A DNA stretch of 1,542 nt from Escherichia coli (GTDB taxonomy: Bacteria > Pseudomonadota > Gammaproteobacteria > Enterobacterales > Enterobacteriaceae): the NCBI RefSeq assembly GCF_003334335.1, contig NZ_QOWQ01000103.1. The stretch is one strand, 5' to 3'. The notes under the pieces were generated by a model. That model made no database searches and was not told the DNA's origin. It saw only the letters and a program-made list of their open reading frames with translations. This document shows positions 72 through 1,542 of the stretch, in pieces. A program made the translations under genes and the position numbers. Positions within the stretch are counted from its first letter, which is position 1, and each line of letters begins with the position of its first letter.

Positions 72-473
72 GTGGGAACCAAAGTGTCAGATATGCAGAA
101 AAATGTGACTCCCGGCAGGCGAAAAGGCTGCCCTAATTATCCTCCCGAATTTAAACAGCAGCTCGTTGCTGCCTCCTGTGAACCCGGGATATCCATCTCA
201 AAACTTGCTCTTGAAAATGGCATTAACGCCAATCTGTTGTTCAAATGGCGACAACAATGGCGCGAGGGAAAGCTGCTATTACCTTCTTCAGAGAGCCCCC
301 AGCTACTTCCTGTGACTCTCGATGCAGCTGCCGAACAGCCAGAATCGCTCGCAGAGGACCCGGAAACCCTCAGTATCAGCTGTGAGGTAACGTTCCGGCA
401 CGGGACGCTCCGCTTCAATGGCAATGTCAGCGAAAAGCTCCTGACTCTGCTGATACAGGAACTGAAGCGATGA
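72..473 (+). CDS. tnpA: IS66-family accessory protein TnpA (Orf1), small helix-turn-helix protein; start ambiguous (GTG at 72 or in-frame ATG at 93)
   Basis: 133-aa ORF from the track. The segment ...PEFKQQLVAASCEPGISISKLALENGINANLLFKWRQQWREG is a typical transposase-associated HTH signature. Stop TGA at 471-473 overlaps the next gene's ATG (ATGA). No strong Shine-Dalgarno sequence precedes either candidate start. Confidence 0.85.
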   Translation: MGTKVSDMQKNVTPGRRKGCPNYPPEFKQQLVAASCEPGISISKLALENGINANLLFKWRQQWREGKLLLPSSESPQLLPVTLDAAAEQPESLAEDPETLSISCEVTFRHGTLRFNGNVSEKLLTLLIQELKR

Positions 474-817
474 TCCCGTTACCTTCCGGGACCAAAATTT
501 GGCTGGTTGCCGGTATCACCGATATGAGAAATGGCTTCAACGGCCTGGCTGCGAAAGTACAAACGGCGCTGAAAGACGATCCCATGTCCGGCCATGTTTT
601 CATTTTCCGGGGCCGCAGCGGCAGTCAGGTTAAACTGCTGTGGTCCACCGGTGACGGACTGTGCCTCCTGACCAAACGGCTGGAGCGTGGGCGCTTCGCC
701 TGGCCGTCAGCCCGTGATGGCAAAGTGTTCCTTACGCAGGCGCAGCTGGCGATGCTGCTGGAAGGTATCGACTGGCGACAGCCCAAGCGGCTGCTGACCT
801 CCCTGACCATGCTGTAA
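470..817 (+). CDS. tnpB: IS66-family Orf2 protein (TnpB of IS66 type; unrelated to the IS200/IS605 TnpB nuclease)
   Basis: 115-aa ORF. The translation MIPLPSGTKIWLVAGITDMRNGFNGLAAKVQ...HVFIFRGRSGSQVKLLWSTGDGLCLLTKRLERGRFAWP matches the highly conserved IS66 Orf2 pattern. ATG at 470-472 overlaps the tnpA stop. Stop TAA at 815-817. Confidence 0.9.
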   Translation: MIPLPSGTKIWLVAGITDMRNGFNGLAAKVQTALKDDPMSGHVFIFRGRSGSQVKLLWSTGDGLCLLTKRLERGRFAWPSARDGKVFLTQAQLAMLLEGIDWRQPKRLLTSLTML

Positions 818-843
818 ATCTCTTTATCCTGGTTGTCACAGAA

Positions 844-867
844 TAAGCCCGGTAAAATACGGGCTTA
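844..867 (+). promoter_or_regulatory. Stem-loop in the tnpB-tnpC intergenic region that includes the first base of the tnpC start codon; possible translational control element
   Basis: Read directly: taagcccg (844-851), loop gtaaaata (852-859), cgggctta (860-867). This is a perfect 8-bp stem. It is not followed by a T-tract, so it does not look like an intrinsic terminator. Confidence 0.4.
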
Positions 868-1542
868 TGAACGACATCTCTTCTGACGACATCTTCCTGC
901 TAAAACAGCGCCTGGCCGAACAGGAAGCGCTGATCCACGCCCTGCAGGAAAAGCTGAGCAACCGGGAGCGCGAAATAGACCATCTGCAGGCGCAGCTGGA
1001 TAAACTCCGCCGGATGAACTTCGGCAGTCGTTCCGAAAAAGTCTCCCGCCGTATCGCACAAATGGAAGCCGATCTGAACCGGCTTCAGAAAGAGAGCGAT
1101 ACGCTGACTGGTAGGGTGTATGACCCGGCAGTACAGCGTCCGTTGCGTCAGACCCGCACCCGTAAGCCGTTCCCTGAATCACTACCCCGTGACGAAAAGC
1201 GACTGTTGCCTGCGGCGCCGTGCTGCCCGAACTGCGGCGGTTCACTGAGCTATCTGGGCGAGGATACCGCCGAACAGCTGGAGTTGATGCGTAGCGCATT
1301 CCGGGTTATCCGGACGGTACGGGAAAAACATGCCTGTACTCAGTGCGATGCCATCGTGCAGGCACCTGCACCTTCGCGGCCCATCGAGCGGGGTATCGCC
1401 GGACCGGGGCTGCTGGCCCGCGTGCTGACCTCGAAGTATGCAGAGCACACCCCGCTGTATTGCCAGTCAGAAATATACGGCCGGCAAGGTGTGGAGCTGA
1501 GCCGTTCACTGCTGTCGGGCTGGGTGGATGCATGCTGCCGGC
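867..1542 (+). CDS. tnpC: IS66-family transposase TnpC (Orf3), N-terminal ~225 codons; 3'-partial, continues beyond the window
   Basis: ATG at 867-869 opens a frame with no stop to the window end; it is absent from the ORF track because it lacks a stop. My translation reads MNDISSDDIFLLKQRLAEQEALIHALQEKLSNREREIDHLQAQLDKLRRMNFGSRSEK...LPAAPCCPNCGG...HACTQCD...YAEHTPLYCQSEIYGRQGVELSRSLLSGWVDACC. This shows a leucine-rich coiled coil followed by a CxxC...CxxC zinc-finger-like motif, as expected for the IS66 TnpC N-terminus. The DDE catalytic domain would lie downstream of the window. Confidence 0.85.
   Translation, partial: MNDISSDDIFLLKQRLAEQEALIHALQEKLSNREREIDHLQAQLDKLRRMNFGSRSEKVSRRIAQMEADLNRLQKESDTLTGRVYDPAVQRPLRQTRTRKPFPESLPRDEKRLLPAAPCCPNCGGSLSYLGEDTAEQLELMRSAFRVIRTVREKHACTQCDAIVQAPAPSRPIERGIAGPGLLARVLTSKYAEHTPLYCQSEIYGRQGVELSRSLLSGWVDACCR

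Follow-up and report, generated by a model that had tools for sequence, protein, structure and literature searches.

The window, i.e., the whole 1,542-bp stretch of Escherichia coli DNA that was analyzed, represents the left 1,542 bp of ISEc8, an insertion sequence of the IS66 family, beginning with base 1 of the left repeat and ending at tnpC codon 225. Its reading frames are all open, and we consider the copy to be probably disabled and non-autonomous, that is, unable to catalyze its own transposition (a probability of about 75%). The window copy belongs to a sub-lineage carrying T1461, which places a cysteine at position 199 of TnpC (R199C) and which in E. coli is overwhelmingly represented by a 2,289-bp derivative of the element. 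This derivative arose by an in-frame loss between two CCTGT repeats, leaving a TnpC devoid of residues 402 to 452, including the glutamate E438. Given R199C and the probable loss of E438, the copy is predicted to be non-autonomous. At best, it could be mobilized in trans by full-length ISEc8 copies acting as helpers, as the deleted relatives have kept both of their ends.

The left end of ISEc8 and its genes

Judged by its sequence, the window is an ordinary copy of ISEc8, a known and catalogued insertion sequence of E. coli. It aligned over all 1,542 bases with 99.6% identity to the element of pO157 (named "IS66-like element ISEc8 family transposase" in RefSeq) and with 99.9% identity to thousands of E. 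coli copies, matches being found in 5,680 complete-genome records of E. coli and in 4,144 plasmids. The best matches differed from the window by one mismatch, and no exact copy was found in 5,426 complete E. coli genomes, PLSDB or the GTDB species representatives, nor among 101 metagenome contigs containing window positions 80 to 230. ISEc8 as found on pO157 and in E. coli O157:H7, O26 and others shares with the window the left repeat, the gene order, the ATGA junction and the TnpA and TnpB proteins. The pO157 copy differs from it at six bases, two of which alter TnpC (R199C and R212S). The assignment to IS66 and the gene order given in the first-pass annotation were correct.

The window opens on the first base of the left repeat and stops within tnpC, with no flanking DNA. 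In all full relatives the element begins at window base 1, with flanking sequence before it. When both ends of a full-length relative (L003) were aligned with each other, the left terminal inverted repeat spanned positions 1 to 22. Its first 13 bases (GTAAGCGTACAGC) exactly match the right end of related full elements, and beyond base 13 the matching is only scattered, up to about base 22. The repeat opens with GTAAGCG, as do the terminal repeats of the IS66 family and of ISEc8.

All three genes lie on the plus strand. tnpA (positions 93 to 473) encodes an accessory protein of 126 aa that scored 97.7 bits on model NF047595 (cutoff of 74); its open frame runs from a GTG at 72, taken as the start in the first-pass annotation, to the TGA at 473, and RefSeq places the start of the same gene at the ATG at 93 and names the product "IS66-like element accessory protein TnpA." TnpA also shows weak similarity to the helix-turn-helix region of the IS3/IS2 OrfA proteins. 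tnpB (positions 470 to 817, from ATG 470 to TAA 817) encodes a second accessory protein, of 115 aa, which scored 120 bits on NF033819 (cutoff of 50) and is identical to WP_000612591.1 of the relatives. Both proteins thus exceed the cutoffs of the curated NCBIfam models for IS66 accessory proteins, and both are identical to their pO157 ISEc8 counterparts. The tnpA stop and the tnpB start overlap as ATGA at positions 470 to 473, and this overlap, together with the order tnpA-tnpB-tnpC on one strand, is the layout of the IS66 family and of ISEc8. A spacer of 49 bases separates tnpB from tnpC.

tnpC, encoding the DDE transposase, starts with the ATG at 867 and occupies positions 867 to 1542. The window end cuts it after 225 codons and one base, i.e., the 5' 44% of the gene, and the frame is open up to position 1541. 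The fragment matched NF033517 with 135 bits (E value of 2.7e-39; model positions 4 to 133 of 387), which falls below the whole-protein cutoff of 180 only on account of the truncation at the window end. In view of these matches, the tnpA, tnpB and tnpC frames are not chance open reading frames. The first-pass annotation had described tnpA and tnpB as open and joined by ATGA, and tnpC as free of stops and frameshifts across about 225 codons, and the coordinates obtained here (93 to 473, with the frame from GTG 72; 470 to 817; 867 to 1541) bear this out.

In the IS66 family, transposition is DDE catalyzed and TnpA and TnpB are small accessory proteins. In TnpC, an N-terminal coiled coil is followed by a zinc finger and then by the DDE catalytic domain. 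Pfam assigned to the full 512-aa TnpC of L003 a leucine zipper (residues 39 to 110), a zinc finger (119 to 161), the DDE_Tnp_IS66 domain (175 to 461) and a C-terminal element (468 to 505). Transferring these limits to the plus strand of the window places the leucine-zipper region at nucleotides 981 to 1196 and the zf-IS66 zinc finger at 1221 to 1349, followed by the first 51 residues of the DDE_Tnp_IS66 domain from nucleotide 1389 onward. The window thus encodes the DNA-binding half of the transposase. No solved structure was matched by sequence to TnpC or TnpB.

The family was founded on IS679 and IS66, which have also been the subject of experiments (Machida 1984; Han et al. 2001; Gourbeyre et al. 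2010; all cited in PMC6778807). The tnpA-tnpB-tnpC layout is typical of the family; tnpC is its most conserved gene and is thought to encode the transposase, and insertion generates 8-bp target duplications (PMC6778807). IS679 and IS66 share with the relatives of the window the three-gene layout and the 8-bp duplications, but they are different elements at the sequence level. Among our set, the full relatives measured 2,442 bp, encoded a 512-aa TnpC and were bordered by 8-bp direct duplications, e.g., GTAAAGCG (L004), GGTCAGCT (L003) and CGTTCAGT (L015). Such a duplication was present around each of L001, L003, L004, L006, L015 and L019. All three genes are reportedly required for transposition of IS679.

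The tnpB-tnpC spacer harbors a predicted hairpin at positions 843 to 868 of the plus strand (9-bp stem with an 8-nt loop; arms AUAAGCCCG and CGGGCUUAU). It folds with -20.1 kcal/mol (z = -3.2), and none of 200 shuffled sequences folded as well. The 3' arm takes in the A and U of the tnpC AUG, and no obvious Shine-Dalgarno sequence lies upstream of tnpC. Overlap of the hairpin with the start codon might limit translation of tnpC. A scan of the window for promoters and terminators gave nothing above chance.

Conserved residues of TnpC and the cysteine at position 199

We aligned the ISEc8 TnpC with 109 full-length cluster representatives, 33 to 52% identical to it, recovered from a search of 1.84 billion proteins. 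In this alignment of 110 sequences, 21 positions were conserved at 95% or more. Among them, D247 (110/110), D311 (109/110) and E438 within the motif DNNxAE (108/110) likely form the catalytic triad, a cluster comprising C330, H333, R335 and R336 lying between the second aspartate and the glutamate. All three triad residues are encoded downstream of codon 225, outside the window. An open tnpC frame in the window is thus uninformative on catalytic integrity since it includes no catalytic residue, and the first-pass annotation had rightly made its reading dependent on the remainder of tnpC.

Position 199 is an arginine in all 110 IS66 transposases, within the family motif P-L-Y-R-Q. In the window, codon 199 (positions 1461 to 1463, plus strand) is TGC and encodes a cysteine (PLYCQ), where pO157 ISEc8 has CGC. 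R199 is hence a family-invariant residue that the window does not retain, and the other nearly invariant residues within it (C120, C123, C157, K190 and P196) are kept. A read error can be set aside, as about 1,900 E. coli records contain the exact 91-mer surrounding T1461. The second replacement relative to pO157 ISEc8, at codon 212 (positions 1500 to 1502, plus strand; AGC, with C1502), exchanges arginine for serine at a position that is variable in the family and at which serine is the commonest residue. Since R199C affects one of the few invariant residues, it argues against assuming that the copy is active.

An in-frame deletion linked to T1461

The relatives that differ from the window by one mismatch were of three kinds, namely, L001 and L002 (T160), which are deleted, and L003 (T141) and L123 (A39), which are full length. 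L001 and L002 each measure 2,289 bp; their right repeat is perfect, and an uninterrupted tnpC encodes 461 aa. This ISEc8 derivative (461-aa TnpC, e.g., WP_000998019.1) thus has T160 as its only mismatch to the window over 1,542 bases, and A902, A1298, T1461 and C1502 are common to both. The deletion is 153 bp long and in frame, lies between two CCTGT repeats and removes element positions 2071 to 2223. The deleted form reads ...AAGACCCTGT|TCTTCGGCTCTGG... across the junction (element positions 2061 to 2083), and the right end of the element is expected to read ...GCTGTACGCTTAC. TnpC residues 402 to 452 (SRHSELAKAFAYALNQWSALTYYANDGWVEIDNNIAENALRAVSLGRKNFL) are lost, including E438 and the sequence DNNIAEN.

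Deleted and undeleted junctions were counted in the complete E. coli genomes with asymmetric junction probes. The deletion junction occurred in 2,230 records from 2,219 of the 5,426 genomes (about 41%) and the undeleted junction in 2,101 records from 1,560 genomes. In the genomes with the deletion junction, the median number of places occupied by ISEc8, whatever its form, was one. To link the markers, we used a spliced exact-word BLAST with 27 bases on each side of the diagnostic site, so that megablast cannot seed on the wrong allele. T1461 was found together with the deletion junction in 1,986 records (1,980 genomes) and with the tested undeleted junction in 28 records, the latter being a lower bound, as copies with SNPs near the junction (such as those of the L123 type) escape the exact-word test. 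T1461 is thus linked to the deletion by about 70 to 1 (1,986 of the 2,014 linked records). Furthermore, the three nearest metagenome relatives of the window were all deleted. We consider it very probable that the element to which the window belongs carries the 153-bp deletion. We infer that this copy would have lost its activity through R199C or through the deletion. The two are separable, given that 6 of 18 sampled deleted copies have R199.

The main alternative is that the window is part of an autonomous ISEc8 copy that has its full length of 2,442 bp, encodes a TnpC of 512 aa in which the DDE triad is intact and ends in an intact right repeat. All frames of the window are indeed open, its TnpA and TnpB are those of canonical ISEc8, and L003 and L123, each one mismatch away from it, are undeleted and encode a TnpC of 512 aa that is intact. 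L003 is represented by about 20 largely clonal records and the L123 type by 2 records. Additionally, elements with C199 were found at new sites with 8-bp duplications, both deleted (L001, GAACGGCA) and full length (L003 and L015). These elements have therefore moved, or were converted after insertion, and R199C may be tolerated; their movement could also have occurred in trans or have preceded gene conversion. However, L003 and L015 could have acquired their duplications before a resident deleted copy converted them. In strain 124, a deleted copy and a full-length copy of the L003 type coexist and share the rare T141. Moreover, when seven undeleted T1461 copies were examined, three were intact (L003, L013 and L015) and four were frameshifted or truncated (L010, L011, L012 and L014). 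Set against these copies, against the linkage of T1461 and the deleted state of the nearest metagenome copies, and against a cysteine where all 110 transposases have arginine, a full-length autonomous copy appears unlikely.

The full-length relatives themselves look like recombinants with a left part derived from the deleted lineage. Up to position 1930, L003 and the deleted type (L001) differ only at positions 141 and 160, and four SNPs and an indel follow. L123 resembles the deleted lineage up to about position 2062, and roughly its last 380 bp are about 15% diverged. The L123 copy (positions 1369 to 3810 in E. coli Survcare253) is a mosaic, with about 55 SNPs in the last 380 bp and a different right end, and its breakpoint abuts the left edge of the 153-bp deletion, as if the deletion had been repaired by recombination with a diverged IS66 relative. 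EC6030 (H258) gave the same spliced-query match as L123.

The copy could also be full length and yet inactive. R199C alone might account for this, or else another lesion located downstream of the window, such as a frameshift, a truncation or an IS insertion. The invariance of R199 speaks for this, and damage to ISEc8 copies is frequent: there is a frameshift in L010 and an internal stop in L011, the 5' part is missing from L012 and L014, L007 is cut by IS1, and L005 and L008 are split by another IS66-family element. However, this would require the rarer undeleted background, and the available 1,542 bases show no lesion, so that we regard such a copy as improbable. In both L005 (2922 to 3191) and L008 (2922 to 3193), the interruption is ISCro1-like and located at about element position 270, the plasmid and chromosome contexts being unrelated; this could reflect a shared ancestral nested insertion or a preferred target.

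Our preferred reading therefore remains that of a disabled copy carrying the deletion. The proposal of the first-pass annotation that open frames make this copy a candidate active element is not supported: the window contains no DDE residue, it encodes C199, and T1461 goes with the deletion in 1,986 records versus 28. The outcomes that had been named as refuting activity (a stop codon, a frameshift or a missing right repeat) are blind to this lesion, the deleted form having a continuous 461-aa frame and a perfect right repeat. As for the checks that had been suggested, examining the length of TnpC and its DDE triad would detect the deletion, and examining the continuity of the frame and the right repeat would not.

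Biologically, this copy is of little importance, as ISEc8 has been catalogued and most E. coli genomes carry it. RefSeq already lists the proteins of the deleted derivative with separate accessions, and ISEc8 and the IS66 family are likewise already known. What matters is that open reading frames are no evidence of mobile-element activity, an in-frame deletion being able to remove the catalytic glutamate without any stop, frameshift or damage to the right repeat. The 461-aa TnpC (L001 3367 to 4752; L002 3367 to 4752) scored 353.8 bits on NF033517, against a cutoff of 180. Because it passes this curated transposase model, annotation presents it as an intact transposase in some 2,200 of the complete E. 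coli genomes (about 40%), and counts of active IS66 copies based on intact open reading frames will be inflated. RefSeq labels this protein as an intact "IS66 family transposase" and not as a pseudogene.

The conserved chromosomal site and its haplotypes

Most of the deleted copies were single and shared one conserved location on the chromosome, flanked by zinc-ribbon genes and by a gene for a phytase-like esterase (left flank TCAACAGGGATAAAATAGTG, right flank TTTTGTTCGGACTGCTTATG). The deleted derivative was also found within yehR in O26 strains, which carry many other ISEc8 copies; this yehR copy is among the C199 elements bordered by 8-bp duplications.

Three deleted haplotypes at the conserved site lie very close to the window. 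L002 differs from it only at position 160, the metagenome copies L061 and L074 only at positions 902 and 1298 (G902 and C1298, the canonical alleles), and L121 only at T141 and G562. The window itself is ancestral at positions 141 and 160, and at 902 and 1298 it shows the derived bases. This corresponds exactly to the node expected among these deleted copies, and the window's haplotype would be the missing intermediate of the deleted lineage at the conserved locus. A deleted copy with exactly the window's haplotype was not found in the collections searched. We also considered A160 as a mark of a non-deleted lineage, which would have favored a full-length element, and rejected it, as deleted copies with A160 exist (L016, L017, L061 and L074).

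A further reading is co-option, in which the cassette with the shortened tnpC, mostly carrying R199C, would be kept open by use in the host, for example to inhibit ISEc8 transposition in a trans-dominant manner or to regulate by binding DNA; the window would then be one such copy. About 41% of the complete E. coli genomes indeed contain the deleted form with open frames, for the most part at a single locus, and it retains the coiled-coil and zinc-finger DNA-binding half of TnpC. However, the divergence among copies is at most about 0.5%, so low that the openness of the frames does not imply selection. In 18 deleted copies, we counted 33 nonsynonymous versus 42 synonymous variants, a rough figure that is confounded by recombination tracts, in which many of the synonymous variants lie. 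Conserved tryptophans are hit (W285R and W331G in TnpC, W56L in TnpA), and frameshifted copies exist (L018 and L122). The variants in the deleted copies fit with slow decay, and co-option is accordingly very improbable.

The deleted copy at the conserved site lacks an 8-bp target duplication, being flanked by AAATAGTG on the left and TTTTGTTC on the right (L002, 2481 to 2500 and 4790 to 4809), and the same flanks were found for L016, L017, L061 and L121. This suggests a past rearrangement between two copies, of a kind known for IS66 from Agrobacterium (PMC6778807). In some metagenome contigs, one flank of the conserved site was paired with a different flank on the other side.

The GTDB species representatives yielded one match, a deleted copy (L009) that, within the region it covers, differs from the deleted reference L001 at 12 positions. 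The contig (CAJKJS010000287.1) carries an E. coli-type deleted ISEc8 in a metagenome-assembled genome labelled "uncultured Ruminococcaceae bacterium," and its placement there is probably a binning error rather than a sign of a real host. L122, located at the conserved locus in E. coli NIPH17_0020 (1369 to 3650), shows clustered indels at 271 to 313 and clustered transversions at 582 to 669; this looks more like a stretch of low-quality assembly than like real divergence.
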